From: Candidatus Parcubacteria bacterium
Lineage (GTDB): Bacteria; Patescibacteriota; Minisyncoccia; Phycocordibacterales; Phycocordibacteraceae
Length of the DNA: 61,553 nt
Direction of reading: 5' to 3'
Assembly (NCBI GenBank): GCA_021731495.1
Contig: JAKFXG010000002.1
Coordinates: forward strand, 1-61,553
Under the pieces are notes generated by a model, which saw only the letters and a list, made by a program, of their open reading frames with translations, ran no database searches and had not been told where the DNA came from. Shown piece after piece: positions 3,975 through 50,241 of this stretch. The translations under genes and the position numbers were made by a program. The stretch's first letter is position 1. Every line of letters starts with the position of its first letter.

Positions 3975-5129
3975 ATGGGAATGAAACGCCTTGCCCCGTA
4001 TCTTGGTGTCATTGTCGCCATCGTATTTACGGTGTCTGCCGTCGCTGTTGCAAACTCGGTAACCATTCGGCTGACTCCTGTTCCAAATACGCCAGTTGCA
4101 TCCTCTACGCTTTCGGTGCGGCCCAATCTCGATGCGCCGCCCATACCGCTACCGAGTTCTGAATTGGCCGCGAACACAGAAAGCGCTTCTCCGGCGCAAG
4201 CGACATCTACCGCGAAGAAGGTGTCGCCCGCGCCCGTGTCGGCTGTTGCTCCTACCCCAGCCCCTATCCCGACCCAGCCTCAACCTTCCGCGGGGAACGC
4301 CGCTGCACTCGATGCTACTGCACTTGCACTACGCGAAGCTCTCGTAAATATCATTTGTTATGCTCCTGCAGGGGGTGTTCTGCGCTCACTTTCTGGAAGC
4401 GGCGTCATCATTGATACGAAGGGCATTATCCTCACCAACGCGCATATTGCTCAAAATTTCCTCCTGGCCGACCGCGGTGTCTCATGCTCTATTCGCGCGG
4501 GTAGTCCGGCTGTGAAAAGGTATGAGGCCGCGCTCATCTTCATTTCATCCGCATGGCTAAACGCGAACGCGAGCGTGCTCACACAATCGGCGCCGAGCGG
4601 CACGGGCGAATATGACTTTGCGCTTCTTGCTATCACAAAGAGCGCGACGGTGACACCGCTCCCTGCCCAATTCCCATTTTTGCCGCTCGCAGAGACACCC
4701 TCTCCTCCCGGCACGCCAGTTGTCATCGGTTCATACGGGGCACAATTCCTCGAGTCGAGCCAGATACAGTCTTCTCTCTTCCCCACGGTTGTTTTCGGTT
4801 CGGTGAAAAATGTATTTACATTTGGGAAGAACACTATCGACGTGCTTGCGCTTGGGGGGTCAGCGGCCGCGCAACAGGGATCTTCCGGTGGCGGCATTGC
4901 TGATGCGAGGGGCATGCTTGTGGGCACTATCACCACAAGCACAATCGAAGGCGCCACCGACACCCGCTCACTCGATGCCATTACCGCCTCCTACATTCGG
5001 GCACAATATGCGAACGAAACCGGAAGCGCTCTCGACGCGCTTCTCGCTAAACCGACGGCTGCTGCCACAGCAGACTTCGCGCCTCAAATGCCTACGCTCG
5101 AGTCGGTTATAACCGCTCATTTACCCTAA
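3975..5129 (+). CDS. membrane-anchored trypsin-like (S1/HtrA-like) serine peptidase
   Basis: N-terminal TM, Pro/Ala-rich linker, GSGVIIDTKGIILTNAHI and GSSGGGI motifs. Confidence 0.75.
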   Translation: MGMKRLAPYLGVIVAIVFTVSAVAVANSVTIRLTPVPNTPVASSTLSVRPNLDAPPIPLPSSELAANTESASPAQATSTAKKVSPAPVSAVAPTPAPIPTQPQPSAGNAAALDATALALREALVNIICYAPAGGVLRSLSGSGVIIDTKGIILTNAHIAQNFLLADRGVSCSIRAGSPAVKRYEAALIFISSAWLNANASVLTQSAPSGTGEYDFALLAITKSATVTPLPAQFPFLPLAETPSPPGTPVVIGSYGAQFLESSQIQSSLFPTVVFGSVKNVFTFGKNTIDVLALGGSAAAQQGSSGGGIADARGMLVGTITTSTIEGATDTRSLDAITASYIRAQYANETGSALDALLAKPTAAATADFAPQMPTLESVITAHLP

Positions 5130-5270: not shown

Positions 5271-5416
5271 GGTCACAACATTTTCTAAACCAACTATTTA
5301 GTCACACTGTCGGGGTGCGGAGAATCGGACTCCGTCATCTTGCTCCCAAAGCAAGCGTACTACCGGTATACGACACCCCGACACTGCGACCAAAAATCTA
5401 AGAAAATGTTGTGACC
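5271..5416. mobile_element. 146-bp unit bounded by perfect 16-bp inverted repeats that carries the intact tRNA-Pro (MITE-like, tentative)
   Basis: GGTCACAACATTTTCT at 5271-5286 is the exact reverse complement of 5401-5416. Confidence 0.4.
5310..5380 (-). tRNA. tRNA-Pro (anticodon UGG), no encoded CCA, T-loop TCCGATT
   Basis: Acceptor CGGGGTG/CACCCCG, anticodon arm CTTGC-TTTGGGA-GCAAG, T arm CGGAG-TCCGATT-CTCCG. Confidence 0.85.
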
Positions 5417-5431
5417 CCAAAGCAAGCGTAC

Positions 5432-5499
5432 TACTGCCAAGCGAGCCGAGCAACAAGTGAATTCCAATTCATTTGTTCGAGGCGAGCGAAGGGAGAAAG
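5432..5499. repeat. about 68-nt hairpin repeat, copy A (TACTGCCAAGCGAG...GGGAGAAAG), inside the D-loop of the broken tRNA-Pro
   Basis: Its first 14 nt are identical to 28501-28514. The central hairpin differs in sequence but still pairs, and the 3' block GAGCG..GG.AGAAAG is shared. Confidence 0.5.
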
Positions 5500-6599: not shown

Positions 6600-6832
6600 T
6601 TCAGGCGACATGATACCATGCCACCCTTTCATTTTTCCAGTGCCCCAACCAGGATCGCGATTACGCTTATCGAAACTTACAGTTTCAGTACACTTCATTC
6701 AGCAGAATGACTCTTGGAGTACGCGGATTTTCTCTTCGCGCAAACGCTCGATAAAATGCTCGCAAAGTCTTCGATTCCTGGCCGCACGTCCCCCAGACGT
6801 GCTTCGGGGCACATCCTCGCTATGTTCGTATG

Positions 6833-6904
6833 TGCCCCGACCAGGAATCGAACCCAGAATTCGACGTCCGAAGCGTCGCGTGATATCCGTTTCACCATCG
6901 GGGC
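6833..6904 (-). tRNA. tRNA-Arg (anticodon UCG), no encoded CCA
   Basis: GCCCCGA/TCGGGGC acceptor, D arm GTGA-AACGGATA-TCAC, anticodon arm CGACG-CTTCGGA-CGTCG. Confidence 0.85.
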
Positions 6905-6961
6905 TAAAACGACACCTTGTGTCGTTCGCCCGAACATTTCACCTTGCAAAATGTTTTAGGG
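6904..6961 (+). repeat. double-hairpin palindromic element, copy e (intergenic, abuts the tRNA-Arg 5' end)
   Basis: CTAAAAC-[GACAC/GTGTC hairpin]-GTTCGCCCGA-[ACATTT/AAATGT hairpin]-TTTAGGG. Confidence 0.65.
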
Positions 6962-7021
6962 CGTACCTGCATACTACTACTAAGCGAGCCGAGACACGAG
7001 CAATTATGCTACGATTCTCAC

Positions 7022-8485
7022 ATGGAATACCGTATCCCAAGCGAAGTCTCCAAAGTCTCCGAAGGATTACGGAAGGCTGGATTCGAGGCGTACCTTGTTG
7101 GGGGGTGCGTCCGCGACCTCATAATCGGTAGAGAGCCGAAAGATTGGGATCTCACTACAAATGCAACTCCTGAGCAGATCCAAGGCGTATTCCCTGATTC
7201 TTTCTATGAAAATGACTACGGAACTGTCGGCGTAAAGACAGGTTCGGAGGACGGGCGTCTTGCCATTGTTGAAGTAACCCCCTATCGCACGGAGTCTGAG
7301 TACTCTGACAAGCGCCGACCCGACAAAGTAGAGTTCGGTGCTTCCCTTCTGGAAGATCTGGCACGTCGCGACTTCACCATCAATGCTATTGCCCTCGAAG
7401 ACTCTAAAGGACATCTGGTTGACCCGTACGACGGTCAAAAGGACATAAAGGACAAGTTGGTGCGTGCCGTCGGTAATGCCAGCCAGCGGTTCAATGAGGA
7501 CGCTCTACGCATGCTTCGTGCAGTCCGTCTCGTAGCTGAGCTTGAATTCGGTATAGACGGCGACACTGCCACTGCAATAAGCGAAAATAGCAAGCATTTA
7601 GGCCAAGTTTCACGTGAAAGAATACGAGATGAGCTCATAAGGATATTGAATTCGAGTAAGCCGATGGATGCACTCGTCCTGGCTCAGAGGCTTGGAATAC
7701 TAGAATTCATAGCGGCAGACCTTATTCGCGGTATTGGTATTGAGCAAAACCAGGCGCATAGCTTTGACGTTTTCGGACATAATCTCCGCACCATGCAGCA
7801 CGCGGCTGATAAGGAGTGGGATTTTGATATCCGTCTCGCTGGTCTTTACCACGACATTTCAAAGCCGGAGACTCGTCGCTGGTCAGAAGAAAAGAAAGAT
7901 TGGACCTTCCATGGACACGAGGTGGTTGGTTCACGTGTAACGAAAAAGGCCCTTGAGGACCTACATTTTTCACGTGAAACGATAGAAAAGGTAGTAAAAC
8001 TGGTCCGTTGGCACATGTTTTTCTCTGATCCGGAGCAGATTACTCTCTCCGCCGTACGGCGCATGATTACGAACGTCGGTGAGGAAAACATATGGGATCT
8101 ACTTAATCTCCGTATCTGCGACCGTATAGGAACTGGCAGGCCTAAGGAACAGCCCTTCCGCTTCCGCAAATACAAGGCGATGGTTGACCAGGCGCTTCGC
8201 GACCCTATCTCCGTGACCATGCTTAAAACGGATGGAAATAGGATTATGGACAAGTTCCACGTGAAACCTGGACCGAAGATAGGTTGGGCACTCAACGCTC
8301 TCCTCGAGGAAATACTTGATGATTCTGCTAAGAATACCGAGGAATATCTCGATAAAAGAACCAGTGAATTGCTCGCTCTATCAGAAAATGACCTTAAAGT
8401 GCTCGGAGAATCGGGGAAAAAGAAGAGGGAAGAGAAGGAAGATGAGGAAATAAAGCATATAATGGAGAAATATCACGTTTGTTGA
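7022..8485 (+). CDS. cca: CCA-adding tRNA nucleotidyltransferase with HD domain
   Basis: GGCVRDLIIGREPKDWDLTT head-domain motif plus a C-terminal HD region. The Met at 7022 fits the family N-terminus. Confidence 0.85.
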   Translation: MEYRIPSEVSKVSEGLRKAGFEAYLVGGCVRDLIIGREPKDWDLTTNATPEQIQGVFPDSFYENDYGTVGVKTGSEDGRLAIVEVTPYRTESEYSDKRRPDKVEFGASLLEDLARRDFTINAIALEDSKGHLVDPYDGQKDIKDKLVRAVGNASQRFNEDALRMLRAVRLVAELEFGIDGDTATAISENSKHLGQVSRERIRDELIRILNSSKPMDALVLAQRLGILEFIAADLIRGIGIEQNQAHSFDVFGHNLRTMQHAADKEWDFDIRLAGLYHDISKPETRRWSEEKKDWTFHGHEVVGSRVTKKALEDLHFSRETIEKVVKLVRWHMFFSDPEQITLSAVRRMITNVGEENIWDLLNLRICDRIGTGRPKEQPFRFRKYKAMVDQALRDPISVTMLKTDGNRIMDKFHVKPGPKIGWALNALLEEILDDSAKNTEEYLDKRTSELLALSENDLKVLGESGKKKREEKEDEEIKHIMEKYHVC

Positions 8486-8821: not shown

Positions 8822-9634
8822 TTATAAGAACGTTATGGAAAGAGGGCAGTGGTCCGAGCCATAAATGTCAGGGTGGATTTCTGCCTTTTTGATCCGCTTC
8901 ATGAACTCACTTGCGACGAAGAAGTAATCGATACGCCATCCAACGTTTCTATCACGCGCGCGGATCTTCATATCCCAATACGTATATGCGTCCTTAGTCT
9001 GAGGGTGGAAGTGGCGGAATGAGTCCACGTATCCCGCCGCAACGACTTCGTCTATCCACGCCCGCTCTTTCGGCAAAAAGCCTGTATTTTCTTCGTTTTC
9101 TTTCGGTCTTGCGAGGTCGATCTCCTCATGGGCCGTGTTCACATCGCCGCAAAATATGACCGGTTTCTGCTTGCGCAGCTTCTCTGCAAAGGTGAGAAAG
9201 GCATCATAATATCGCAGTTTATAGTCGAGTCGTTCGGGACCCTGGCCACCATTGGGGAAGTAGATGTTCAAGAGCCAGAAGTCTTCAAATTCAGCCCCGA
9301 TGAGCCGACCCTCCTGGTCGAATTCCCTTATACCCAGGCCATAAATGACTTTCAAGGGTTCGACCTTGGAATAAATGGCGACGCCGCTATAACCTTTCCT
9401 TAGTTGCGAGGAAGAAAAGAATGACGAGAACCCAGCAGGGGAGCGCATGGCCTCCGGAATCTGTTCGGGACTCGCTTTAGTCTCCTGGAGGCAGAAAATA
9501 TCGGGCTTGGTGCCCTTCAAAAAAGATTCCCAATAGCCATTATTTGCAAGGGAACGCAGGCCGTTTACATTCCAGGAGACGATCTTCACTGGACTATTGT
9601 AGCGCAGGTCGGGTCTAATTCCGACTTTTCCCAT
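8822..9634 (-). CDS. xth: exodeoxyribonuclease III (AP endonuclease)
   Basis: VKIVSWNVNGLRS, QETK, GDVNTAHEEIDL, SDHCPL motifs. Start taken at the Met at 9634; overlaps the Xer gene stop. Confidence 0.9.
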   Translation of the reverse strand: MGKVGIRPDLRYNSPVKIVSWNVNGLRSLANNGYWESFLKGTKPDIFCLQETKASPEQIPEAMRSPAGFSSFFSSSQLRKGYSGVAIYSKVEPLKVIYGLGIREFDQEGRLIGAEFEDFWLLNIYFPNGGQGPERLDYKLRYYDAFLTFAEKLRKQKPVIFCGDVNTAHEEIDLARPKENEENTGFLPKERAWIDEVVAAGYVDSFRHFHPQTKDAYTYWDMKIRARDRNVGWRIDYFFVASEFMKRIKKAEIHPDIYGSDHCPLSITFL

Positions 9635-10535
9635 GGTACTTCTTATGGATTTCGCGGAGGTGCGAGTCTGTGATGTGCGTGTAAATCTGCGTTGTGTTGA
9701 TAGAGGCATGGCCGAGGAGCTGCTGGACGGAGCGAATATCGGCGCCGTTACTCAGTAAGTCAGTAGCAAACGCATGGCGAAGGGTATGGGGCGTGACCAC
9801 ATTCGTAATACCGGCCCGCGTAACATATGCCTTCAAGTGGCGTTGAACGTCGCGGGGGATGATGCGATGCAATTTATTCGGCCTACCGTCTACAAAGAGA
9901 GCTTCTTCCATATCGTTTCGTGCTTTCAAGTATTCGCGTACGGCTTCTTTGGCAGCAGGGGAGAGGAAGACGACGCGCACCTTCTCACCCTTACCGCGTA
10001 CGGATAGCTCGTCGCGTGAGAGGTCAATGTCAGAATTGAGCGCGCAGAGTTCAGACACACGCAGTCCGGTTGAAAAGAGCATCTCAAGGATAGCGCTGTC
10101 TCGCAGGTACATGCGCTCTTTGTCGGGGTCTTTTGCCTTTTTAAATGCTTCTCGCGGTGCCTGCATGAGGCGCTCAAGTTCGGTAGGGGTGATTAGGTCC
10201 AGCTGTCGCTCAGGAAGCTTCGCAAGCTCTATTTTCTCAGGAGAAATGGCGGGAATATCGCGTTTTCTGAGGAATTTGAGGAAAGCGCGCAGCGCGATCA
10301 TGTAGTAATTCTGGGTCCGGCGCTTCATGGAACCGGCAGCCGTACCCGGCTGCCGGTTGAGCCAGAGCCGGAACTCGCGGACATTCTGCTCAGTGATGTC
10401 ACTCACGTCTTTTATGCCCATCTGCGCGAAATAGCGGGTGAGATACCGGTCGTAGTTTTCAATCGTTTTCACCGCGCGGCCGCGCTCGATCTCAATATGC
10501 TCAAGGAATTGGCGTTTTGCCGTCTCGGCGTTCAT
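9615..10535 (-). CDS. tyrosine site-specific recombinase, XerC/XerD type
   Basis: C-terminal HTLRHAFATDLL...GADIRSVQQLLGHASINTTQIYTH. Start at MNAETAKRQFLEHIEIERG. Confidence 0.9.
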   Translation of the reverse strand: MNAETAKRQFLEHIEIERGRAVKTIENYDRYLTRYFAQMGIKDVSDITEQNVREFRLWLNRQPGTAAGSMKRRTQNYYMIALRAFLKFLRKRDIPAISPEKIELAKLPERQLDLITPTELERLMQAPREAFKKAKDPDKERMYLRDSAILEMLFSTGLRVSELCALNSDIDLSRDELSVRGKGEKVRVVFLSPAAKEAVREYLKARNDMEEALFVDGRPNKLHRIIPRDVQRHLKAYVTRAGITNVVTPHTLRHAFATDLLSNGADIRSVQQLLGHASINTTQIYTHITDSHLREIHKKYHGKSRN

Positions 10536-10699
10536 TAAAAGTAGTTTAACACTGTACTTCGCACAATATTCAATGTTATTGATAGGTATAGTAGTCACGT
10601 GTATGATTAATCTCAGAAGCACCCTGACTCCACTTACGGATAAAGGGTCTCGTTTGTGCCAAACTTAACCCAGTAAATCCTCATTAAGGAGGAGTCATC

Positions 10700-11799: not shown

Positions 11800-12312
11800 A
11801 TGGCAGTTATCAAACATCCAGCGCAGCGTGTCGGCGTATTTATCGACACACAAAATCTCTATCACAGCGCCAAGCATCTCTACAAAGCACGTGTTAACTT
11901 CGCAAAAGTTCTCGAAGAGGCCGTCGGCGGACGCATCCTCGTCCGTGCCGTCGCGTACGTCATCTCGACTGAGAGCGGGGAAGAGTCGAATTTCTTTGGA
12001 GCGCTTACCAAGATCGGTATTGAAACAAAGGTAAAAGACCTGCAGATATTCGCCGATGGCGCGAAGAAGGCTGACTGGGACGTCGGAATCGCGATTGACG
12101 CGGTCAAAATGTCGCCGAAGCTCGATACGGTCATCATCGCTTCGGGCGATGGTGACTTCATTCCGCTTATCGAATATCTCGACATGCACGGCATTCAAGT
12201 TGAGGTCATCTCCTTTGGCAAGTCCTCTTCGGCCAAGCTCAAAGAAGCCGCGCATGCCTTCACTGACATGTGTGACGACCCCCACAAGTTCACCATCACT
12301 TCAAGAATCTAA
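11800..12312 (+). CDS. NYN-domain (LabA/DUF88-like) protein
   Basis: VGVFIDTQNLYHSAK...VIIASGDGDFIPLIEYL pattern. Confidence 0.8.
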   Translation: MAVIKHPAQRVGVFIDTQNLYHSAKHLYKARVNFAKVLEEAVGGRILVRAVAYVISTESGEESNFFGALTKIGIETKVKDLQIFADGAKKADWDVGIAIDAVKMSPKLDTVIIASGDGDFIPLIEYLDMHGIQVEVISFGKSSSAKLKEAAHAFTDMCDDPHKFTITSRI

Positions 12313-12332
12313 TACATTTTGCTTTGCAGAAT

Positions 12333-12375
12333 ATGCCACCAAAACGCCCCGCTCTGCGGGGCGTTTTGGTGGCAT
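12333..12375. terminator. perfect 20-bp hairpin with an internal terminator core
   Basis: ATGCCACCAAAACGCCCCGC-TCT-GCGGGGCGTTTTGGTGGCAT. Confidence 0.6.
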
Positions 12376-16844: not shown

Positions 16845-17114
16845 GATGACCCCGAACCCTGCGACGAATACTATGCACTGTTCGGCGATTCGGTATGTAC
16901 CCGGTCTCGTGTCTTGCGGCAGCGAGTCGGGGGATTTCGGATTTAAATCAATAGAAAAACTAGGGGAATGTGGTGTGTCTGCGAATACAAAAATGGCCTA
17001 AATACCCTGTATATAAGCCATTTCTTGAATACTTTCTTATCAGTCGATACTTGGAGTATAGCCGAGTGGGAACGGGAGTCAATTAACCCGTCCGATAGCT
17101 GTGGAGAGCGGTTT

Positions 17115-19094
17115 GTGCGCTATATTCGAACAGTGAACTACCTCGAAGGATTAAATGATGCGCAGAAACGGGCGGTGCTCGCGGTGGATGGTCCGATATC
17201 GGTTCTTGCCGGTGCCGGAAGCGGGAAAACACGCGTGCTCACGACGCGTATCTATCATCTTGTCCGGACCGGTGTTCCCGCGAACCAAATTCTTGCCGTT
17301 ACCTTCACCAACAAGGCCGCCCGAGAAATGCGCGCCCGGGTCCGCACGATGCTCGGCGAAGATACTTCCTCGGCTGTTCCTTTCATTGCCACTTTTCATG
17401 GTCTCGGACGCGAATTACTGGAAACGTACGGGAAGGTTATGGGCATCCCCCGCTTTTTCAGCGTATACGATCGCGATGATTCGGAAAAAGCGATCAGCGC
17501 GGCGCTCAAGGCGCTTGATGTTGAAGCAAAAGAACTTTCGCCGCGTGCGGTTCTGGGGCGCATCTCGCGCGCAAAAGGGGAGGGAATGAGGGCGAATGAG
17601 TTTTACGAGAAACATACACGCTCGGGATTTGGCGCACGGATCGCCGCGGAGGCCTGGCTTCGTTACGAGAAAACACTCGCCGCAGAGAAGGCGCTCGACT
17701 TCGATGATCTCATCGCCCTTCCGACGCGGATGCTCGAGGAGCATGCTGATATTCGCGCGCTTGCGCAGGAACGCTGGAAATATATTCATATCGATGAGTA
17801 TCAGGATACAAATGAGTTACAAGAAAGACTCACCAGTCTTCTTGCAGAAAAACATAAGAATCTTTTCGTAGTGGGAGACGGCGACCAGTCGATATACGGA
17901 TGGAGAGGGGCGAAGATGGAAAACATTTTGAATTTTGAGAAAAGATACCCAGGATCTCAGACGATTATTCTCGAACGGAATTACCGTTCGACGAAAAATT
18001 TGGTTGATGCGGCAAACGCGGTTATCGAAAAGAACAAAAATCGCAAGGAGAAATACTCAACGACCGAACGCGCCGCGGGCGCGCCTATTGTGGTCCATAT
18101 GGCGCAAAGCGCCGAGGACGAAGCGCGTTGGATTGCACTAAAAATACGGGAGCTGATGAAAAGCGGGGCTACTCCCCTAAACGCGCCGCGAAGCGGCGCG
18201 TCGGGCGAACAGGTAAAACCTGTTTTAGCCGAAGAAATTGCGATATTATTTCGTACGAATTTCCAATCGCGTGCACTTGAGGAAGGATTGCTTCATGCGG
18301 GCGTGCCCTACAAGTTGCTCGGTACGCACTTCTTTGCGCGCAAGGAAGTGAAAGATGTTCTTGCATGGGTGCGACTCGCGATGGACCCTTCACGCGAGGT
18401 GGATAAGCTTCGCGCGGCGGCTTCACCATCGCGGGGTATCGGGAAAGTAACGCTCGGAAAACTTGCCGCGGGGCAGCGCTCTCTCCTGCGTGCGGGCGAG
18501 CTTGCGAAGGTTGAACAGTTTGAAAGTGTTATCGACGAACTTTCTCAGGCCGCACACTCATTAGTACCTTCTGAATTCGTGAAGCTCATCATTGAGAAGA
18601 GCGGCATGCGCCGGGCCCTCCTTGAAGAGGGGAGTGCGGATGACCGTGAGCGTTTCGAGAACGTTGAGGAAATCGCTTCAGTGGCTGCGCGACACGATGC
18701 GGTTGCTGGGCAGGAAGGTATCGCCGCCTTTCTCTCTGAAGCCGCACTGTCGAGCGATCAGGATGAGATGGATCAAGGAGAGAAAACCGGCGTCACTCTC
18801 ATGACCGTTCATGCGGCAAAGGGTCTTGAATTCGGAACGGTTTTCGTGAGCGGTATGGAGGAAGGGCTCTTCCCGCACCAGGGCATGGGTGGAGAGAAAG
18901 ACCGTGACGAAGAAGAGGAGCGTCGATTATTCTACGTGGCGATGACGCGCGCAAAAGAAAGGCTCTTCCTCACACTCGCGCGTATCCGTAAGATTTATGG
19001 CACTGATTATGCGGCAGAACCGTCGTCTTTTCTTGCCGACATCGACGGATCGCTGACGCTCTTCGATGAAACAGAGGGAGAAGAGATCTATTGA
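17115..19094 (+). CDS. UvrD/PcrA/Rep-family ATP-dependent DNA helicase
   Basis: LNDAQKRAV, AGAGSGKT, VTFTNKAAREM, DEYQDTN, VGDGDQSIYGWRGA, TVHAAKGLEF motifs. GTG at 17115 follows GGAGAG. Confidence 0.9.
   Translation: MRYIRTVNYLEGLNDAQKRAVLAVDGPISVLAGAGSGKTRVLTTRIYHLVRTGVPANQILAVTFTNKAAREMRARVRTMLGEDTSSAVPFIATFHGLGRELLETYGKVMGIPRFFSVYDRDDSEKAISAALKALDVEAKELSPRAVLGRISRAKGEGMRANEFYEKHTRSGFGARIAAEAWLRYEKTLAAEKALDFDDLIALPTRMLEEHADIRALAQERWKYIHIDEYQDTNELQERLTSLLAEKHKNLFVVGDGDQSIYGWRGAKMENILNFEKRYPGSQTIILERNYRSTKNLVDAANAVIEKNKNRKEKYSTTERAAGAPIVVHMAQSAEDEARWIALKIRELMKSGATPLNAPRSGASGEQVKPVLAEEIAILFRTNFQSRALEEGLLHAGVPYKLLGTHFFARKEVKDVLAWVRLAMDPSREVDKLRAAASPSRGIGKVTLGKLAAGQRSLLRAGELAKVEQFESVIDELSQAAHSLVPSEFVKLIIEKSGMRRALLEEGSADDRERFENVEEIASVAARHDAVAGQEGIAAFLSEAALSSDQDEMDQGEKTGVTLMTVHAAKGLEFGTVFVSGMEEGLFPHQGMGGEKDRDEEEERRLFYVAMTRAKERLFLTLARIRKIYGTDYAAEPSSFLADIDGSLTLFDETEGEEIY
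18175..18228 (-). repeat. double-hairpin palindromic element, copy c (54 nt, in frame inside the helicase gene)
   Basis: Its reverse complement reads CTAAAAC-[AGGT/ACCT]-GTTCGCCCGA-[CGCGCCGC/GCGGCGCG]-TTTAGGG. Confidence 0.7.
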
Positions 19095-19097
19095 AGA

Positions 19098-19439
19098 TTA
19101 AGCAGCTTCTTCTTCGTTGTGTGGTTTTGGCGGCGGGACATCTTTGATTTTGAGGAGGTCTTTTAACGACTCTTCGATAACCTTTCTTTCCTTTGGTTTA
19201 AGGTCATGCCGACCTTCGTAGTGGTTATCTAAAAAATCTAATGCCATGTCGACGTGCTTATCCTGCATTCCATACTGCAAATCTCGTTTTCTTTCTACAT
19301 GAGAGACAGCAGCCTTCGTCGCCTCGTTAACACGAGCGCGTCCTTGCTCGTTTAAACCGGCAAGATGTTGTAAGTGAGTAAACCTCTCGCGTGCCGGCCC
19401 ATGCTCAAGACTTACTTGTGTAAGTTTGCGGTTGTTCAT
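19098..19439 (-). CDS. hypothetical charged protein (113 aa)
   Basis: Uninterrupted ORF convergent with the helicase and divergent from rsmA. No motif recognised. Confidence 0.45.
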   Translation of the reverse strand: MNNRKLTQVSLEHGPARERFTHLQHLAGLNEQGRARVNEATKAAVSHVERKRDLQYGMQDKHVDMALDFLDNHYEGRHDLKPKERKVIEESLKDLLKIKDVPPPKPHNEEEAA

Positions 19440-19461
19440 ACAACCAGTATTGTACATCGAT

Positions 19462-20313
19462 ATGATGCGCGCCAAAAAATCGCTTGGGCTAAAACCATCA
19501 GTGCATCTGATGGTTCGCCCGACGCGTCGCCGGGCGGCGCGTTTAGGGCAAAACTTTCTCATGCACGCACGTATTGCGGAGCGCATAGCGCTCGTTGCAC
19601 AGCTTGCACCGGATGCAACGGTATTTGAAATCGGTCCGGGAACGGGCATGCTCACGCGAGAACTCCTAAAGCGTGCGGGCAAAGTAATTGCCCTTGAAGC
19701 GGATTACGAACTTTTCGAAAAGTTACGGACTGAATTTTCGTCTGAAATTGCGGACAATCGTCTCGAACTCATGCACGGCGACATACGCACGTTTGATATT
19801 TCGACGCTCCCAAAAGGGTACGTGCTCGTCGCGAACATTCCGTACTATCTCACGGGCGAAATATTCCGCATGTTCCTCGAATCAGAAAATCAGCCGAGTG
19901 CGATGACACTGCTCGTGCAAAAGGAAGTTGCCGAGCGCATCGCTCGCTCCAAAAAAGAAAGTATTCTCTCCCTTTCGGTAAAGGTGTATGGCACACCGAA
20001 GCGCGAATTTGTGGTACCTCGCGGAGCGTTCAGGCCGGCACCAAATGTGGATTCCGCGGTGCTGACCGTCCGTAATATTTCACGAAATAATTTCGCATCC
20101 CGTAGCGAAGAAGAACGATTTTTCGCGCTGATACATGCAGGATTTGCGCATAAACGGAAGTTCGTGCGCACAAACCTTATTGATGCTGGATTGATTCCGG
20201 CTAAAACCGCCGGAGGCGATTCGCCCGACGCGCCATTGAATGGCGCGTTTAGGGAGAAAGCGCGTGCCGAGGATGTCCCACTCTCCACATGGCTTATTCT
20301 TTGTCGTCTCTAA
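19462..20313 (+). CDS. rsmA: 16S rRNA (adenine1518/1519-N6)-dimethyltransferase
   Basis: LGQNFL, EIGPGTGMLT and NIPYY motifs. Carries two repeat-element insertions. Confidence 0.9.
   Translation: MMRAKKSLGLKPSVHLMVRPTRRRAARLGQNFLMHARIAERIALVAQLAPDATVFEIGPGTGMLTRELLKRAGKVIALEADYELFEKLRTEFSSEIADNRLELMHGDIRTFDISTLPKGYVLVANIPYYLTGEIFRMFLESENQPSAMTLLVQKEVAERIARSKKESILSLSVKVYGTPKREFVVPRGAFRPAPNVDSAVLTVRNISRNNFASRSEEERFFALIHAGFAHKRKFVRTNLIDAGLIPAKTAGGDSPDAPLNGAFREKARAEDVPLSTWLILCRL
19489..19548 (+). repeat. double-hairpin palindromic element, copy a (60 nt, in frame in the rsmA N-terminus)
   Basis: CTAAAAC-[CATCAG/CTGATG]-GTTCGCCCGA-[CGCGTCGC/GCGGCGCG]-TTTAGGG. Deleting it joins KSLG to QNFL. Confidence 0.75.
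20201..20254 (+). repeat. double-hairpin palindromic element, copy b (54 nt, in frame in the rsmA C-terminus)
   Basis: CTAAAAC-[CGCC/GGCG]-ATTCGCCCGA-[CGCGCCAT/ATGGCGCG]-TTTAGGG. Confidence 0.7.
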
Positions 20314-20379
20314 TGCACATGTACACGTAGATAGTCCCTATCTCCCGGCAGTGCGACTGTTATACTTGAGAGCGATACC

Positions 20380-25514: not shown

Positions 25515-26504
25515 ATGGACGATACTATTACAAAAGAACAGGTGTTGAATGCCTACAATAATGCGCCAGATTTCGTTCGCGCCGCATTCAACGACGAAGT
25601 AACGACCCAGGTAGTTGTGGGGTTAAAGGCGAAATTCCAACTTCACATCGATATGGCCGGCATCCTTGCTAAGGAAGTGGGATACTTGCTTCTCGGTGTT
25701 ATCGATCCAGATACGTTTGCAAAACGCCTCAAGACTAGTGGTTTTTCTGAACAGATGGTTACAGAAATTATGGCCGAGCTCAATCAAAAAGTATTTGTTC
25801 CCCTGCGAACAAAAATGAGACGTGAGGGAGTAGAGACGGGCCAGACACCCGCTCCTGTCGCAAAGGTTCCACAACAGAGACCGATGGCGCCGCCGCCAAC
25901 TCCCACGGTAGGGGGAGTCTCCTCCTATTCTCCGCCTTTGCAGTCCCCGCGATATTCATACCCAGAGAATCCAATGCCTACCCAACCCCAGTATCAATCT
26001 ATTTCTAAGATCGCACCCTTGCCGCCGAAAAATGTGCTCCCACGCCCACCTTCACTTCCAGCTGTAGGAGGGTCACGCCCGGTTTCGGGACAAGTTCCAA
26101 AGCCAATGGACGCGAGCAGAATGCTCGAAGACCATGAGGAGCCGCATATCGAATTCAATAAAACACCTCCTGCGCCTGGTGTTCCTGTACGGGAGAAAAG
26201 AGTGGAAACGCCGCTCGGACAAGCATTGCGAACGGTGATGCCCTCAGTGCCTCCCACAAATCTTCCGGGCGTCATGCCAAAAAGTATCGCTCCCGGCGCT
26301 CGATACTCCTCATATACGGTCACCCCAAAGGCCAGCCCGGTTACTCCACCCATTCCCCCGAAACCAATTCCTCCCGTTACCCCTCCTGCTCCCCTAAACG
26401 CTTCGCCACGCGAGGCACCGGGCGAACATTATGCAAAGCAGAATGTTGTAGCCGCCAAACCCTATTCGGCCGACCCCTACCGCGAACCAATTGATGAAAA
26501 ATAG
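25515..26504 (+). CDS. hypothetical protein, about 100-aa N-domain then a long Pro-rich tail
   Basis: ORF tightly linked to the upstream gene. Carries repeat copy d near its C-terminus. Confidence 0.65.
   Translation: MDDTITKEQVLNAYNNAPDFVRAAFNDEVTTQVVVGLKAKFQLHIDMAGILAKEVGYLLLGVIDPDTFAKRLKTSGFSEQMVTEIMAELNQKVFVPLRTKMRREGVETGQTPAPVAKVPQQRPMAPPPTPTVGGVSSYSPPLQSPRYSYPENPMPTQPQYQSISKIAPLPPKNVLPRPPSLPAVGGSRPVSGQVPKPMDASRMLEDHEEPHIEFNKTPPAPGVPVREKRVETPLGQALRTVMPSVPPTNLPGVMPKSIAPGARYSSYTVTPKASPVTPPIPPKPIPPVTPPAPLNASPREAPGEHYAKQNVVAAKPYSADPYREPIDEK
26392..26451 (-). repeat. double-hairpin palindromic element, copy d (60 nt, in frame, diverged)
   Basis: Its reverse complement reads CTACAAC-[ATT/AAT hairpin]-GTTCGCCCGG-[GCCTCG/CGAAGC]-GTTTAGGG. 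Confidence 0.55.
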
Positions 26505-30914: not shown

Positions 30915-30954
30915 TCACCCCAGTACCACAACCTCGGTTGGCTACGGGGCAAGC
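30915..30954. repeat. left arm of the inverted repeat bracketing tuf-rpsJ (CCCCAGT...ACGGGGCAAGC hairpin family)
   Basis: Matches the reverse complement of 32614-32662 with one mismatch and a 9-nt loop indel. Confidence 0.7.
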
Positions 30955-30996
30955 GTCGGATATTCGTGATTAATTATTAACGTTATCCGATTTACT

Positions 30997-32196
30997 ATGG
31001 CAGAATTTAATCGAAGCAAGCCGCACATGAACGTGGGCACCATCGGTCACGTGGACCATGGAAAGACGACTCTCACCGCAGGTATCCTGCATGTTCTCTC
31101 GATGCTCACCGGCGAGGGCTACAGCGCCCGCGTTGAAGGCGTCGATAAGATCGACAGTGCACCTGAGGAAAAGGCGCGCGGTATTACTATTGCGCTCCAC
31201 CACTCGGAGTACGAGTCACCAAACCGTCACTACGCGCACATTGATGCGCCAGGACACGCTGACTACATCAAGAACATGATCACGGGCGCCGCCCAAATGG
31301 ACGGAGCCGTACTTGTGGTTGCCGCAACTGATGGTGTGATGCCTCAGACACGTGAGCACATCCTCCTTGCAAAGCAGGTGGGTCTCAAGAAGCTCATCGT
31401 TTTCCTTAACAAGGTAGACATGGTTGCCGAGGCTGACCTCATCGACCTCGTCGAAGAGGAAATCCGCGAGCTTCTGACCAAGCAGGGCTACGATGGTGCC
31501 GCTACGCCGATTATCCGCGGTTCGGGCCTTAAGGCTCTTGAATCAAAGGATGTCAGCGACGAGTGGGCACAGAAGGTTAAGAGCCTTGTTGACACGATGG
31601 ACACATACTTCGACCAGCCTGAGCGCGAAGTATCGAAGCCGTTCCTCATGCCTATCGAAGACATCTTCTCGATCGAAGGTCGTGGCACCGTGGTCACTGG
31701 CCGTATCGAGCGCGGTGTTGTGAAGGTAGGTGAAGAAGTTGAGATCGTCGGTATTAAGGCGACCGTCAAGACGACCGTCACCGGTATCGAAATGTTCAAC
31801 AAACAGCTCCAGGAAGGTATGGCGGGCGACAACGCCGGCATTTTGCTCCGCGGTACGAAGAAAGAAGACGTGCATCGCGGCCAGGTCCTCGCAAAGAGCG
31901 GCTCGGTCACTCCGCACACCGACTTCGAAGCCGAGGTCTACATTCTCGGCAAGGATGAAGGCGGTCGCCACACGCCATTCTTCTCGGGTTACAAGCCGCA
32001 GTTCTACATCCGCACAACGGACGTCACCGGTGAAGTAACGCTCGCAGAAGGAAAGGAAATGGTCATGCCAGGAGACACGGTCACTTTCAAGGTGAAGCTC
32101 GTTGCTCCGGTTGCGCTCGAAGCACAACAGCGCTTCGCCATTCGCGAAGGAGGTAAGACGGTCGGTGCCGGTGTCGTGACGAAGATCACTGCGTAA
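30997..32196 (+). CDS. tuf: elongation factor Tu
   Basis: [31 protein letters not shown]. Confidence 0.98.
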
Positions 32197-32221: not shown

Positions 32222-32611
32222 ATGGCTACAGCGACAACAGCAAAACCTAAAGCGAAGAGCGCCCCAAAGCGTGCCGCGAAAAAGGTCGCAGCCCCGGCTC
32301 CTGTGGAGCATAAGCTCCGCATCCGTGTCCGCGCCTATGAGCACAAGATTCTCGATCTCTCGGTGAAGCAGATCATGGATACTGCAGCCCGCTTTGATGC
32401 CGTCGTTGTCGGCCCTGTGCCGCTTCCGACTGAGATCAAGCGCTGGACCGTGAACCGTTCGACGTTCGTCCACAAAGACGCTCGCGAGCAGTTCGAGATG
32501 CGCATCCATAAGCGTCTCATCGACATCCTCAACCCCTCGCCGAAGGTCATCGAGGCCCTTACCAATCTGAACCTGCCAAGTGGTGTCACGATTGACGTGA
32601 AGATGGTATAG
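32222..32611 (+). CDS. rpsJ: 30S ribosomal protein S10 with a Lys/Ala-rich N-terminal extension
   Basis: KLRIRVRAYEHKILD...GPVPLPT... core, preceded by about 28 extra residues. Confidence 0.95.
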   Translation: MATATTAKPKAKSAPKRAAKKVAAPAPVEHKLRIRVRAYEHKILDLSVKQIMDTAARFDAVVVGPVPLPTEIKRWTVNRSTFVHKDAREQFEMRIHKRLIDILNPSPKVIEALTNLNLPSGVTIDVKMV

Positions 32612-32613
32612 AT

Positions 32614-32662
32614 GCTTGCCCCGTAGCCAACCGAGCAAAGCGAGGTTGTGGTACCGGGGTGA
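32614..32662. repeat. right arm of the inverted repeat bracketing tuf-rpsJ (GCTTGCCCCGT...CCGGGG)
   Basis: Begins 3 nt after the rpsJ stop; reverse complement of 30915-30954. Confidence 0.7.
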
Positions 32663-47420: not shown

Positions 47421-47597
47421 GGAGCTGTTCCTAAAAACGCAACTTGCCTAATGCAAGGGGTTTCGGAGTCGTCAGTGGCAATGTGAGCGATATTCGTTCC
47501 TACGCTACTGCGCAGGAACCCCACCTGGAAAATAAAGTTGCATTAGGGAATGGCTCCACGAAAAAACCGCTCTGTAGAGAGCGGTTTTTTCGTGGAG
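47421..47597 (+). promoter_or_regulatory. structured leader (multi-stem) ending in a 20-bp terminator hairpin (47554-47597); candidate riboswitch or attenuator
   Basis: P1 47421-47431/47547-47557 (11 bp), 47439-47445/47535-47541, hairpin 47496-47519. The terminator CTCCACGAAAAAACCGCTCT-GTAG-AGAGCGGTTTTTTCGTGGAG ends 20 nt before the ATG. Confidence 0.45.
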
Positions 47598-47617
47598 TGC
47601 CGTGGTACATTTTATGC

Positions 47618-49030
47618 ATGTCATTGCGATTAAGTTTTTATGGCGGAGCAGGGAAGGTGACCGGATCAAATTTTCTTATTGAAGGGGCAAATGGAAAAGT
47701 CCTTGTCGACTGCGGCATCGAACAAGGCGCTGACTTTTGTGAAGAATGCGTGTATGGGCCGTTCCCGTACGACGTGAAGGCGATCGACGCGCTTGTCGTC
47801 ACGCATGCGCATCTCGATCACGTCGGCCGTATTCCAAAGCTCGTGCGGGACGGTTTTCGCGGAAAGATTTACATGACACCGGCGACGCGCGACCTCGCCG
47901 AACTCATCATGCGCGACTCGGTCGGCATCCTGAGCGAAGAGGCCTCTCGTCGAGATATTGCGCCACTCTACGGGGAGAAAGATGTTGATGCAACTTCCTC
48001 ACTCATCGAAACGCTTGAGTATCATACCGAAAAAGAAATTCCTGCCTGCCGGCAGGCAGGGCCCACGGGACTCTCAGTGTATCTCCGCAACACCGGCCAC
48101 ATCCTCGGCTCGGCGAGTGTGCGCATCAAGGATGAGGAGGGCGTTGCCGTTGCGCTCACGGGCGACATCGGCAACTCTCCTTCGCCACTACTGCCTGACT
48201 GGGAACCAGTGACCGACGCGGATGCACTTGTTATGGAGAGCGTGTATGGCGACCGAAATCACCCGAGCCAGCAGGCTCGCACCGAGATCTTGGCCGAGGT
48301 ATTGAAGCGCGCAATAGCAAAAGGCGGCGCTATTCTCATTCCCGCCTTCTCGCTTGAGCGCACACAACTGATGCTCTATGAACTCTCAAACTTTTTTTCC
48401 GCAGGGACGCTCCCAAAGATCCCCGTGTTTCTGGACTCGCCGCTTGCCATCAAGGTGACCACCGTCTACGAGAAGTGGGGTCCAACGTACTTTAAGCCCG
48501 AAACCGAGGATGAGATGAAGCGAGAGGAAAGTATTTTTGAATTTCCGTTTTTGAAACAGACCCCTTCGCGCGAGGAGTCGATGTCGATAGAGAAGGTGCC
48601 GGGCCCGAAGATCATCATCGCCGGTGCAGGCATGAGTCACGGCGGCCGTATCGGTCACTGGGAGACGCGCCACCTGCCCGATCCCTCATCCACGCTCATT
48701 ATCGTCGGGTACCAGGCTCCCGGGACGCCCGGGCGGCGTATGATGGAGGGAGCATCGAGCGTGCGGCTCGGCGGCAATGAGATAAAAATTAAGGCCAAGG
48801 TCGAGAATCTCACGGGATGGTCCGCACATGCCGACCGCGATGAATTGCTCAAATTTGCGCACGCATCACTGCCGCGCCCAAAAGCCATTTTCACTGCCAT
48901 CGGTGAGCCTTCAGCTGAACGTTTCCTTGCTCAGCGCATCCACGACTACCTCGGCGCGCGCGCCATCGTTCCCGAGTCAGGGCAGACCTGGGAGATTACC
49001 AAGGATTCAGTCAAACAAGTTCCGGTTTAG
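47618..49030 (+). CDS. MBL-fold beta-CASP ribonuclease (CPSF/RNase J-related)
   Basis: MSLRLSFYGGAGKVTGSNFLIE, HAHLDHVGRIP, beta-CASP region, C-terminal SAHAD. Confidence 0.85.
   Translation: MSLRLSFYGGAGKVTGSNFLIEGANGKVLVDCGIEQGADFCEECVYGPFPYDVKAIDALVVTHAHLDHVGRIPKLVRDGFRGKIYMTPATRDLAELIMRDSVGILSEEASRRDIAPLYGEKDVDATSSLIETLEYHTEKEIPACRQAGPTGLSVYLRNTGHILGSASVRIKDEEGVAVALTGDIGNSPSPLLPDWEPVTDADALVMESVYGDRNHPSQQARTEILAEVLKRAIAKGGAILIPAFSLERTQLMLYELSNFFSAGTLPKIPVFLDSPLAIKVTTVYEKWGPTYFKPETEDEMKREESIFEFPFLKQTPSREESMSIEKVPGPKIIIAGAGMSHGGRIGHWETRHLPDPSSTLIIVGYQAPGTPGRRMMEGASSVRLGGNEIKIKAKVENLTGWSAHADRDELLKFAHASLPRPKAIFTAIGEPSAERFLAQRIHDYLGARAIVPESGQTWEITKDSVKQVPV
48961..49011 (+). repeat. 51-bp direct repeat, copy 1 (3' end of the beta-CASP gene)
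   Basis: Identical to 49770-49820. Confidence 0.9.
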
Positions 49031-49091
49031 CTAGCGGTAGTGTACCGCCGCTCCTATCAAATGTTGACTACGACCGTGGTACACTTTTGAT

Positions 49092-49673
49092 ATGGGAATC
49101 GTAGAGTCGGAAGCGAGGAAGAAGCGTGTGTATACCAACGTGCAACAAGCATTGCTTGTTACGGTCGCACTCACTGGTGTGGCTCTTGTTGCAGCCATAG
49201 CGCCGAATACGCCCGCGGCGTTGGCTAAATTACCGAGTGTAAAAAGAGCACAACTGCGATATCAATACAGAACGGCACTTGGAAGGCTCGCCGCAAAAGG
49301 ACACATCGTCTTTGAAAAACGCGACGGGAAACAGTATGCCAGGATTACCGAGTCGGGTCGCAAGGTTCTCGTGTTCGAGCAAGAGAAAGTGAAGTTCAGC
49401 GTCACTAGAAAAAGACGATGGAACGGGAGATGGCGAGTGGTCATTTTCGACATACCTGAACGCCGTCGCCGGACACGAGATCGACTCAGGAATCTGATGC
49501 TAGAGACAGGTTTTGTGCGGCTCCAGGATAGCGTCTGGGTCTTCCCTTACGACTGCGAGGATTTCATTTCTTTAGTAAAAGCGGAGTTAAAAATCGGTTC
49601 GGCCATCTTGTACATGGTTGTTGAACACATAGAAAATGATACGCATCTGCGTGCCCACTTCGGTCTGAAATAA
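49092..49673 (+). CDS. PaaX-like protein (hydrophobic N-segment, winged helix, Cas2-fold-like WRVVIFDIPE...LQDSVWVFP domain)
   Basis: The W.GRWRVVIFDIPERRRRTRDRLRNLMLETGFVRLQDSVWVFP pattern is typical of the PaaX central domain. Confidence 0.65.
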   Translation: MGIVESEARKKRVYTNVQQALLVTVALTGVALVAAIAPNTPAALAKLPSVKRAQLRYQYRTALGRLAAKGHIVFEKRDGKQYARITESGRKVLVFEQEKVKFSVTRKRRWNGRWRVVIFDIPERRRRTRDRLRNLMLETGFVRLQDSVWVFPYDCEDFISLVKAELKIGSAILYMVVEHIENDTHLRAHFGLK

Positions 49674-49769
49674 GTCTCGGATACCAGCGCGAGCATATCA
49701 AAAGTTATATACGACCGTTGTATTAATTTGATATCTTCCATTATCTTGTGGTACACAGATGAAAGCCAA

Positions 49770-49833
49770 CGCCATCGTTCCCGAGTCAGGGCAGACCTGG
49801 GAGATTACCAAGGATTCAGTGAAAAAGATTTAA
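49770..49833 (+). pseudogene. 51-bp direct repeat, copy 2, forming an orphan 3' fragment of the beta-CASP gene (AIVPESGQTWEITKDSVKKI*)
   Basis: Identical 51 nt, then a diverged tail with its own stop and terminator. Confidence 0.7.
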
Positions 49834-49867
49834 AACAAAAACCACTCCTTTCGGAGCGGTTTTTGTT
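49832..49867. terminator. bidirectional terminator (beta-CASP fragment / rplT)
   Basis: AAAACAAAAACCACTCC-TTTC-GGAGCGGTTTTTGTT. Confidence 0.7.
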
Positions 49868-50213
49868 AGACGACTTGCTTAGCGATGCGGGCGAAAACTT
49901 CAGGATGTTCGGAAGCAAACTCTGCGAGGACTTTACGGTCGAGCGCAAAACCGGTCTTCTTCAGCTTTGCGATGAACGTACTGTAGGACTTGTGACCATT
50001 GTCGCGGACAGCGGCGTTGAGGCGCACGATCCAAAGCTGACGGAAATCGGTCTTCTTGTCACGACGGTGGGCGAAGGCGTAGCGGCCTGCGCGCATGAGC
50101 GCCTCGTGTGCGTAACGCTCCTTCTTAGAGCGGATGCCTCGGTAGCCCTTGGCCCTCTCGAGGACATTCTTGCGGCGTTTCTGCGCCATAACTCCACCTT
50201 TGATTCGTGTCAT
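49866..50213 (-). CDS. rplT: 50S ribosomal protein L20
   Basis: MTRIKGGVMAQKRRKNVLERAKGYRG.... Confidence 0.96.
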   Translation of the reverse strand: MTRIKGGVMAQKRRKNVLERAKGYRGIRSKKERYAHEALMRAGRYAFAHRRDKKTDFRQLWIVRLNAAVRDNGHKSYSTFIAKLKKTGFALDRKVLAEFASEHPEVFARIAKQVV

Positions 50214-50241
50214 ACAGAAATAATTAAAAACATTAATTAAA

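Follow-up and report, generated by a model that had tools for sequence, protein, structure and literature searches.

A GG-flanked palindromic element in the rsmA gene of a Candidatus Parcubacteria bacterium and its relatives among Patescibacteria

The rsmA gene of a Candidatus Parcubacteria bacterium (assembly GCA_021731495.1, contig JAKFXG010000002.1), which encodes a 16S rRNA dimethyladenosine transferase, carries a palindromic segment of 54 nt near its 3' end and another of the same kind near its 5' end, and the question raised by this locus is whether such segments are native to the protein or arrived as DNA. The window, as we use the term, is the whole stretch that was analysed, 61,553 nt in length. 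An earlier note, made from its letters alone, had taken positions 20201-20254 for the second copy of a palindromic element inserted in this gene, on the same strand as an N-terminal copy. The two copies and their shared strand are borne out (19487-19549 and 20201-20254), and the insertion reading is supported within a wider picture, that of a phylum-wide family with two covarying hairpins, GG targets and a history of the filled allele that is unlike that of the rest of the gene. The 54 nt of rsmA is a DNA-level insertion, and we think it probable that the inserted sequence is a non-autonomous palindromic mobile element, similar to RPEs and REPINs in its behaviour.

Two insertions in one rsmA gene

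The gene, its two inserts (copies B and C) and the parts of copy C are as follows; bit scores are those of a covariance model.

19462-20313, plus strand: rsmA, 16S rRNA dimethyladenosine transferase, 283 aa, host of copies B and C
19487-19549, plus strand: copy B, 68.0 bits, a net insertion of 60 nt that divides KKSLG from QNFL at the RsmA N-terminus
20199-20255, plus strand: copy C, 71.3 bits, E=2e-18
20199-20200: GG of copy C
20201-20204: CTAA of copy C
20205-20221: hairpin 1 of copy C, AACCGCC-GGA-GGCGATT, with one C.A mismatch
20222-20227: linker of copy C, CGCCCG
20228-20248: hairpin 2 of copy C, ACGCGCCAT-TGA-ATGGCGCGT
20249-20252: TTAG of copy C
20253-20254: GG of copy C

The identity of the host gene is secure (Pfam RrnaAD, E=7.9e-41, with residues 27-239 matched), and the homologue P0001 is identical to the window protein; here and below, P-numbers denote RsmA homologues and L-numbers related contigs or loci. 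The letters at 20201-20254 are CTAAAACCGCCGGAGGCGATTCGCCCGACGCGCCATTGAATGGCGCGTTTAGGG, which read in frame give AKTAGGDSPDAPLNGAFR in the loop between the last two RsmA helices; if all of 20199-20255 is translated, LIPAKTAGGDSPDAPLNGAFREK is an example of the peptide that would be expected. Copy B is read in the other open sense frame as LKPSVHLMVRPTRRRAARLG, so the frames of the two copies do differ by one, and removal of the 54 nt of copy C does leave att ccg gag aaa gcg in frame, both as the earlier note had said. Copy B ends TTA GGG, which re-creates Leu-Gly before QNFL and so keeps the conserved motif, while the presence of GG at both ends of copy C means that its junction may slide by two bases. 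Because the model that scored the window copies was built from copies of other genomes, the match of copy C, at 71.3 bits, is far beyond chance, and three exact shared blocks, GCTAAAAC, TTCGCCCGACGCG and GGCGCGTTTAGGG, co-occur solely at copies of the element.

The principal evidence for insertion comes from orthologues. Around 100 of the 120 closest (70-89% identity) lack both inserts, with KKSLGQNFL N-terminally and AGLPAGDIPEKARAED in the C-terminal loop; the comparison of C-termini that the earlier note had proposed therefore finds an empty loop in most relatives, rather than a peptide kept in homologues that lack the nucleotide motif. Its proposed structural check points the same way. Solved RsmA/KsgA structures align to residues 27-241, between the inserts, and in an AlphaFold2 model with a mean predicted local distance difference test (pLDDT) of 88 the inserts are mostly coil, with pLDDT of ~51 (residues 10-29) and ~64 (around 250-260); both lie outside the conserved core, as coil of low model confidence.

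Filled and empty alleles were compared at the DNA level for three sites, one in rsmA and two in the gene for a UvrD/PcrA-like helicase, with the inserted letters in brackets:

RsmA N-terminus: empty CTC GGG CAG AAC; filled CTT GG[G CTA AAA ... TTA GG]G CAA AAC
UvrD site 2: empty AAG GGT, ACC GGC, ACG GGC or AGA GGA; filled AAG [GCT AAA ... TCT AGG] GGC
UvrD site A, element inverted: empty AAG CCC GAA; filled C[CC CTA AAC ... TTA GCC] GAA

In each case the empty allele already has GG (CC for an inverted element) precisely where the junction falls, and the filled allele is longer by the core and one GG. The C-terminal loop of RsmA has been entered repeatedly. Five lineages carry a sense element there, in the window lineage at ATT CCG^GAG; at least five others carry an antisense element at this Pro-Glu junction, at ATT CCC^GAG, one or two bases away from the sense site; and P0010 has a sense element four codons upstream. 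These represent at least three separate insertions because their hairpin tips are unrelated, which also rules out inversion in situ as the source of the opposite orientations. The antisense RsmA copy of L008 and L029 is nearly identical to a UvrD copy ~2 kb upstream, which suggests short-range movement.

Hairpin architecture and reading frame

Alignments of 30 and later 39 copies gave a single layout for the element, GG/CTAA-[AAC-hairpin1-GTT]-CGCCCG-[RAC-hairpin2-GTT]-T(T)AG/GG, with a length of 43-70 nt. The core letters are invariant, whereas the stem tips differ wholly among copies yet remain paired around loops of mostly 3 nt. Compensatory changes affect 8 of 19 pairs according to RNAalifold; the alignment made with the covariance model has pairing in 98% of stem cells and double changes at 12 of 19 pairs. 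None of 500 shuffles matched the observed pairing and covariation, and when the partner was displaced by 1-3 columns as a control, pairing fell to 33-47%. When stem mismatches were compared as G.T versus A.C, as a pointer to the functional strand, most lay at loop-closing positions and mid-stem counts were too small. An A+T-richer subtype combines perfect CTAAAAC/GTTTTAG ends with a GTTCG-CC-CGAAC centre, and this reveals a near two-fold symmetry of the element.

Rfam 15 contained no match to the element, either in the window at the gathering threshold (where four tRNAs were the only hits) or at E<=10 over 18100-20350. Likenesses to attC, dif, the T-arm and the hammerhead, twister and pistol ribozymes were set aside because their features do not fit the conserved core, Rfam being the sole formal comparison. 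A guide role for the hairpin tips, in which each would match its own flanks, was likewise dropped: a signal of z ~4 against cross-locus shuffles was gone against distal controls from the same locus (p=0.12), and the outliers of that test, which used the longest common substring, were adjacent tandem copies.

Some copies depart from the standard layout. L135 has, from 3849 on the plus strand, a variant with one hairpin, GGCTAAAAC-hairpin-GTTTTAGTCC; L068, L072, L074, L078 and L081 have tandem or directly adjoining copies; and the UvrD copy at L021 4647-4733 (minus strand) has a 30-nt palindrome nested in the loop of hairpin 2, its length still being a multiple of three and the whole still translated.

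Length and frame separate intragenic copies from the remainder. Where the open span is 150 aa or longer, the genome sample has 36 copies out of 38 whose length between the flanks is a multiple of three, the two exceptions lying one beside a tmRNA gene and one beside a tRNA gene, and the same is true of 31 of 33 in a metagenome sample that was picked without regard to the right half of the element. Pooled, 67 of 71 coding copies keep the frame and are free of stops. For spans of less than 100 aa in the metagenome sample the figure is 16 of 58, with the three length classes split 26/16/16. Each orientation of the core has one frame closed by a stop codon, which leaves four frames open; the genome sample chiefly uses sense-0 (AKTAxGGSPDA...AFRG) and antisense-1 (PLNAPRSGASGEQ..PVLA), and the metagenome sample sense-0 and sense-2 ((W/G)LKP..ARP..GLG). 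A rule that holds for intragenic copies only is what selection on a translated insert would predict, and not splicing, bypass or excision of DNA before expression; we therefore infer from these frame statistics that the intragenic element is read through, being transcribed and translated with its host protein. In P0013 and P0110 gene callers have put the start codon inside the N-terminal element (MVRPTRRKAARLGQNFL...), and automatic annotation of marker genes is distorted accordingly.

Distribution, conservation and spread

An exact pattern for the right half of the element has 29 matches in species-representative genomes, and 28 of these are in assemblies of Patescibacteria, or Candidate Phyla Radiation (CPR), among them Kaiserbacteria, Paceibacterota, Parcubacteria and Nomurabacteria. 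The lone match elsewhere, in Seleniivibrio, has no left half and appears fortuitous. A left-half pattern matches at least 120 metagenome contigs, and the covariance model found the complete element in nearly all of the 100 contigs to which it was applied. Judged from these sequence matches, the family appears to be specific to Patescibacteria. IMG/VR viral contigs gave no match to the element, so carriage by phage is not supported.

Copies land in genes, in intergenic DNA and in a tmRNA gene; about half of all copies lie inside long open reading frames (ORFs), and many loci have two or three within a few kb. The hosts include RsmA, UvrD, FtsK-, DnaG-, ArgRS-, PheS-, peptide deformylase (Def)- and GyrA-like and other core proteins, identified by eye from motifs, with a Pfam check for RsmA and UvrD. 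The tmRNA gene (L001 4923-5386, minus strand; Rfam RF00023, 79 bits) has a copy at 5049-5108 (minus) within its 3' pseudoknot region, which shows that the element enters genes for structured RNA too, and a second copy at 5384-5444 (minus) adjoins its 5' GGGG end. A non-coding copy of 56 nt, with a GAAA or CCGA tetraloop in hairpin 1, is kept in L005 (2073-2130), L009 (3043-3100), L052, L087 and L090. In L005 and L009 it stands directly downstream of a TATAGT box, in L005 between divergent genes, and it may belong to a 5' leader.

Orthologous copies are much better preserved than their surroundings. They are 77-100% identical, compared with 65-80% for flanking coding DNA, and their four-fold sites are identical in 10/11, 11/11, 10/11, 8/9 and 13/13 cases (52/55), compared with 35-55% elsewhere in the same genes. 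In sliding comparisons the raised identity is limited to the element and at most ~30 nt beside it. A long recombination tract around the orthologous copies was rejected on the grounds that identity is raised only in the element and no more than ~30-60 nt on one side. Stems nevertheless change in a compensatory way between orthologues: hairpin 1 in UvrD is AGGT/ACCT, AGGC/GCCT and AGAC/GTCT in three genomes, hairpin 2 in ArgRS has gone from T-A to G-C, Def shows several double changes, and RsmA has compensatory changes as well.

Presence of the element is patchy. The five carriers of the sense C-terminal insert (P0001, P0003, P0004, P0007 and P0011) have a mutual identity of 71-79% over the RsmA core, and the nearest relatives of P0001 and P0004, with RsmA proteins 89-90% identical to theirs, are empty. 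All five carriers share the hairpin-2 tip CCATTGAATGG, found nowhere else in 1.04 Mb of related DNA, and all five lack four codons (PAGE) that stand upstream in empty alleles; GL-IP-[element]-EK cannot be turned into GLPAGEIPEK by simple loss. In the 57 nt upstream of the element, the identity of the window to its gene-wide sister L030 drops from 84% to 70%, and that of L154 to L155 from 83% to 67%, whereas the identity of the window to two carriers climbs, from 69% to 82% for L032 and from 70% to 79% for L156. This pattern is suggestive of the filled allele, with a short flank, having moved between lineages by recombination, and such movement would account as well for elements that seem younger than the surrounding genes.

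Relation to known systems, origin and further repeats

The structural features of this element have analogues in several described families. RPEs are palindromic repeats whose intragenic copies stay in frame and add peptide stretches to otherwise unrelated housekeeping proteins of a bacterium with a small genome (review PMC10969869); our element is likewise palindromic and is present both between genes and, in frame, within ORFs. However, RPEs are ~100-150 bp long, belong to Rickettsia and encode one conserved peptide per family; this element is 43-70 nt long, belongs to Patescibacteria, has two short tandem hairpins with an invariant 25-nt core, variable tips and GG targets, and yields peptides that vary with frame and orientation (AKTA..SPDA..FR, PLNAP..SGE..VLA, LKP..RP..LG). 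With REPs and REPINs it shares short, G+C-rich imperfect palindromes, a conserved head, a near two-fold doublet and tens to hundreds of copies per genome. REPs, though, are extragenic with a GTAG or CGTC head, and the arms of a REPIN pair with each other, while the units of this element fold on themselves, many copies are intragenic, and the heads are CTAA-AAC and CGCCCG-RAC, without GTAG; GACG, the complement of CGTC, does occur at the base of hairpin 2, although on its 3' side and on the opposite strand.

The likeness to insertion sequences concerns junctions and hairpins. IS607 has GG at both termini, prefers a (G)GG target and produces no further duplication (PMC6188088), and GG termini, a GG target and the lack of added duplication recur at our three sites with empty alleles. 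The ends of IS607 are longer, with several subterminal direct repeats and no inverted repeats, whereas those of the element are inverted (CTAAAAC/GTTT(T)AG). Derivatives of IS200/IS605 resemble the element in that they are very small, have hairpins close to both ends and make no classical target duplication; they also have a fixed 4-5 nt target 5' of the insertion, hairpins conserved in sequence and a strand-specific orientation, none of which apply here, where flanks conserve only GG and both orientations occur within 8 kb. Intragenic miniature inverted-repeat transposable elements (Correia, ERIC, Coxiella QMITE) are also small repeats tolerated inside ORFs, but the classical ones exceed it in length and have genuine terminal inverted repeats, along with target duplications that vary. 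Mitochondrial 'byp' segments are hairpin-forming inserts of similar size (27-55 nt) that are skipped by the ribosome and need not preserve frame, unlike the element. In behaviour, then, it is closest to RPEs and in architecture closest to REP/REPIN doublets, and by size, head motif or location it is a member of neither. It is apparently undescribed, being set apart from the RPE, REP and IS families by their descriptions; the literature, with incomplete coverage of full texts, gave no account of such an element in CPR or Patescibacteria.

In proposing a mobile origin, we envisage an element that inserts at GG, or CC when inverted, adding its core and one GG. New sites would be reached by transposition, often close by, and the filled allele would also pass between related lineages as a short recombination tract. 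Within genes, the copies that are seen preserve the frame and lack stops, and most of them use just two or three of the four open frames; in RsmA the inserts would form flexible stretches of 18 and 20 residues outside the catalytic core. Two features offer leads, and only leads, to the enzyme. GG ends with a GG target are the junction signature of an IS607-type serine transposase, whereas hairpins that keep structure while varying in sequence point instead to an enzyme that recognises single-stranded hairpins (HUH/Y1, RAYT-like); recognition of the hairpin as a structure would explain the covariation. A bolder version of this model is possible and held only tentatively: a phylum-wide CPR mobile element that enters essential genes in frame at GG, replaces empty alleles in a homing-like manner, and involves either a new hairpin-specific recombinase or a nucleic-acid signal adopted by the host. 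If true, it would be a CPR counterpart of the REP/RAYT or RPE systems with a mechanism of its own.

Several observations weigh against a mobile element. Crude searches of ~1 Mb of flanking CPR DNA revealed no autonomous partner, solo end or transposase gene, a RAYT gene included: solo left ends were chance or degenerate ones only, a regular expression for serine-recombinase catalytic motifs matched no ORF (a weak negative), phmmer with queries for IS200/IS608 TnpA and gamma-delta resolvase returned nothing from 5212 ORFs (again a weak negative), and no copy was seen to have a serine recombinase gene nearby. Nor do the candidate enzyme classes fit cleanly, since IS607 lacks terminal inverted repeats and uses subterminal direct repeats (PMC6188088), and IS200/IS605 elements insert beside a 4-5 nt target where there is only GG here. 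Orthologous copies, with 52/55 four-fold sites kept and stems changing in compensatory fashion, are preserved far better than a decaying selfish insert should be; such conservation may reflect recent horizontal arrival, or else nucleic-acid selection, which a purely selfish model does not predict. Finally, the support for translation consists of frame statistics, and the recombination signal is one short tract at one site in five carriers.

A rather unlikely alternative, which may also coexist with a mobile origin, is that the element is a structured sequence maintained by its host in the manner of REPs or BIMEs, providing protein-binding sites or signals in mRNA or replication under nucleic-acid selection, with coding copies existing because CPR genomes have scant intergenic space. 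The invariance of the core over very different CPR lineages speaks for this, as do the preservation of four-fold sites when flanking ones are saturated, the confinement of raised identity essentially to the element, with the adjacent 30 nt only slightly up, and the compensatory stem changes in UvrD, ArgRS, Def and RsmA. Yet presence is patchy among lineages whose RsmA proteins are 89-90% identical, both orientations are used with no steady position relative to genes, recent horizontal spread of the filled allele explains the conservation equally well, and template switching at quasi-palindromes can restore stems without selection.

Removal at the RNA level, by a mini-intron, a self-cleaving or self-ligating RNA or a 'byp'-like bypass segment, would make insertions in essential genes harmless and would suit a compact, strongly structured motif with covariation. 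It would also lift the need for an open frame, which is contradicted by the excess of frame-preserving lengths among coding copies (67/71, against 16/58 for non-coding ones); the element has both orientations relative to its host gene, and it matches no Rfam ribozyme or intron even at E<=10. Since both orientations occur at the same RsmA site and one copy lies within a tmRNA gene, the process is one of DNA and not RNA, and we regard RNA-level removal as very improbable. It is scarcely credible that the 54 nt encodes a loop native to the protein in this lineage, or arose as an artefact of assembly, and merely happens to resemble the N-terminal segment. The C-terminal loop of RsmA does vary in length in the orthologues P0005, P0022 and P0120, but one nucleotide motif that yields unrelated peptides in unrelated proteins, through four frames and both orientations, is not a native loop, and an artefact would hardly recur in independent assemblies from NCBI, JGI, ENA and Logan.

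CPR bacteria have tiny, gene-dense genomes in which mobile DNA is generally considered scarce. The family shows otherwise, in that core housekeeping genes have repeatedly taken up a repeat of 50-60 nt and were not destroyed by it. For annotation and phylogenomics this means unrecognised inserts of 16-22 residues and wrong start codons in marker genes; for protein evolution, a ready source of new surface loops; and for the biology of transposition, a GG-targeting element with two structure-conserved hairpins that fits no described family cleanly. The covariance model provides a direct handle for tracing the responsible enzyme by phylogenetic profiling.

Besides copies B and C, the window holds the following relatives, listed with the helicase gene:

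16968-19094, plus strand: UvrD/PcrA-like helicase gene, host of copy A; start codon uncertain, Pfam-checked
18174-18230, minus strand: copy A, 77.9 bits, antisense to the helicase gene
26391-26453, minus strand: copy D, 57.0 bits, more diverged, antisense in the proline-rich ORF 25515-26504
6902-6962, plus strand: copy E, 39.1 bits, E=2.7e-9, with 59 nt between flanks, not a multiple of three
12307-12371, plus strand: weak relative, 20.9 bits, E=4e-4, membership uncertain

The four best copies score 57-78 bits under the covariance model (E 2e-14 to 3e-20). The earlier note had offered high element density or a local insertion hotspot as the reason for two copies in one gene, and each holds in part: density is high, with five clear copies and one weak relative in 61.5 kb, and the RsmA C-terminal loop has been hit recurrently. 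Clustering in the window is modest, three of the five copies lying within 2.1 kb (scan-statistic p ~0.03). Copy A is translated as PLNAPRSGASGEQVKPVLA, and its site holds an element in L021 and L031 but none in L032; copy D is translated as PLNASPREAPGEHYAKQNVVA and has orthologous copies in L020 and L012. Copy E belongs to the A+T-richer subtype (hairpin 2 bordered by GAAC...GTTTTAGGG) and is probably untranslated. Three of its bases overlap the 5' end of a tRNA-Arg gene (6832-6904, minus), and it also covers the annotated start of the ORF for the CCA-adding enzyme (6917-8485), the true start of which is probably further downstream. The weak relative has a hairpin 1 like that of copy D, while its 3' half is a perfect 21-nt palindrome, terminator-like, following an ORF with an NYN domain; it may be a decayed or co-opted element.

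The window also has a Xer-like tyrosine recombinase at 9615-10622 on the minus strand (Phage_integrase, E=1.4e-41, with an N-terminal SAM-like domain), which is probably the housekeeping XerC/D. Other repeats were seen in the window as well. Inverted repeats of ~45 nt (90-96% complementary), at 30915-30957 and 32611-32662, enclose the EF-Tu gene (30997-32196) and an unassigned minus-strand ORF of 180 aa, with no tRNA or Rfam match in that place. A direct repeat of 55 nt, 98% identical, occurs at 48961-49015, at the end of the ORF for a beta-CASP/RMMBL RNase (47444-49030), and at 49770-49824, near the start of ORF 49728-50240, and an additional inverted repeat lies at 49055-49094 and 49694-49733.

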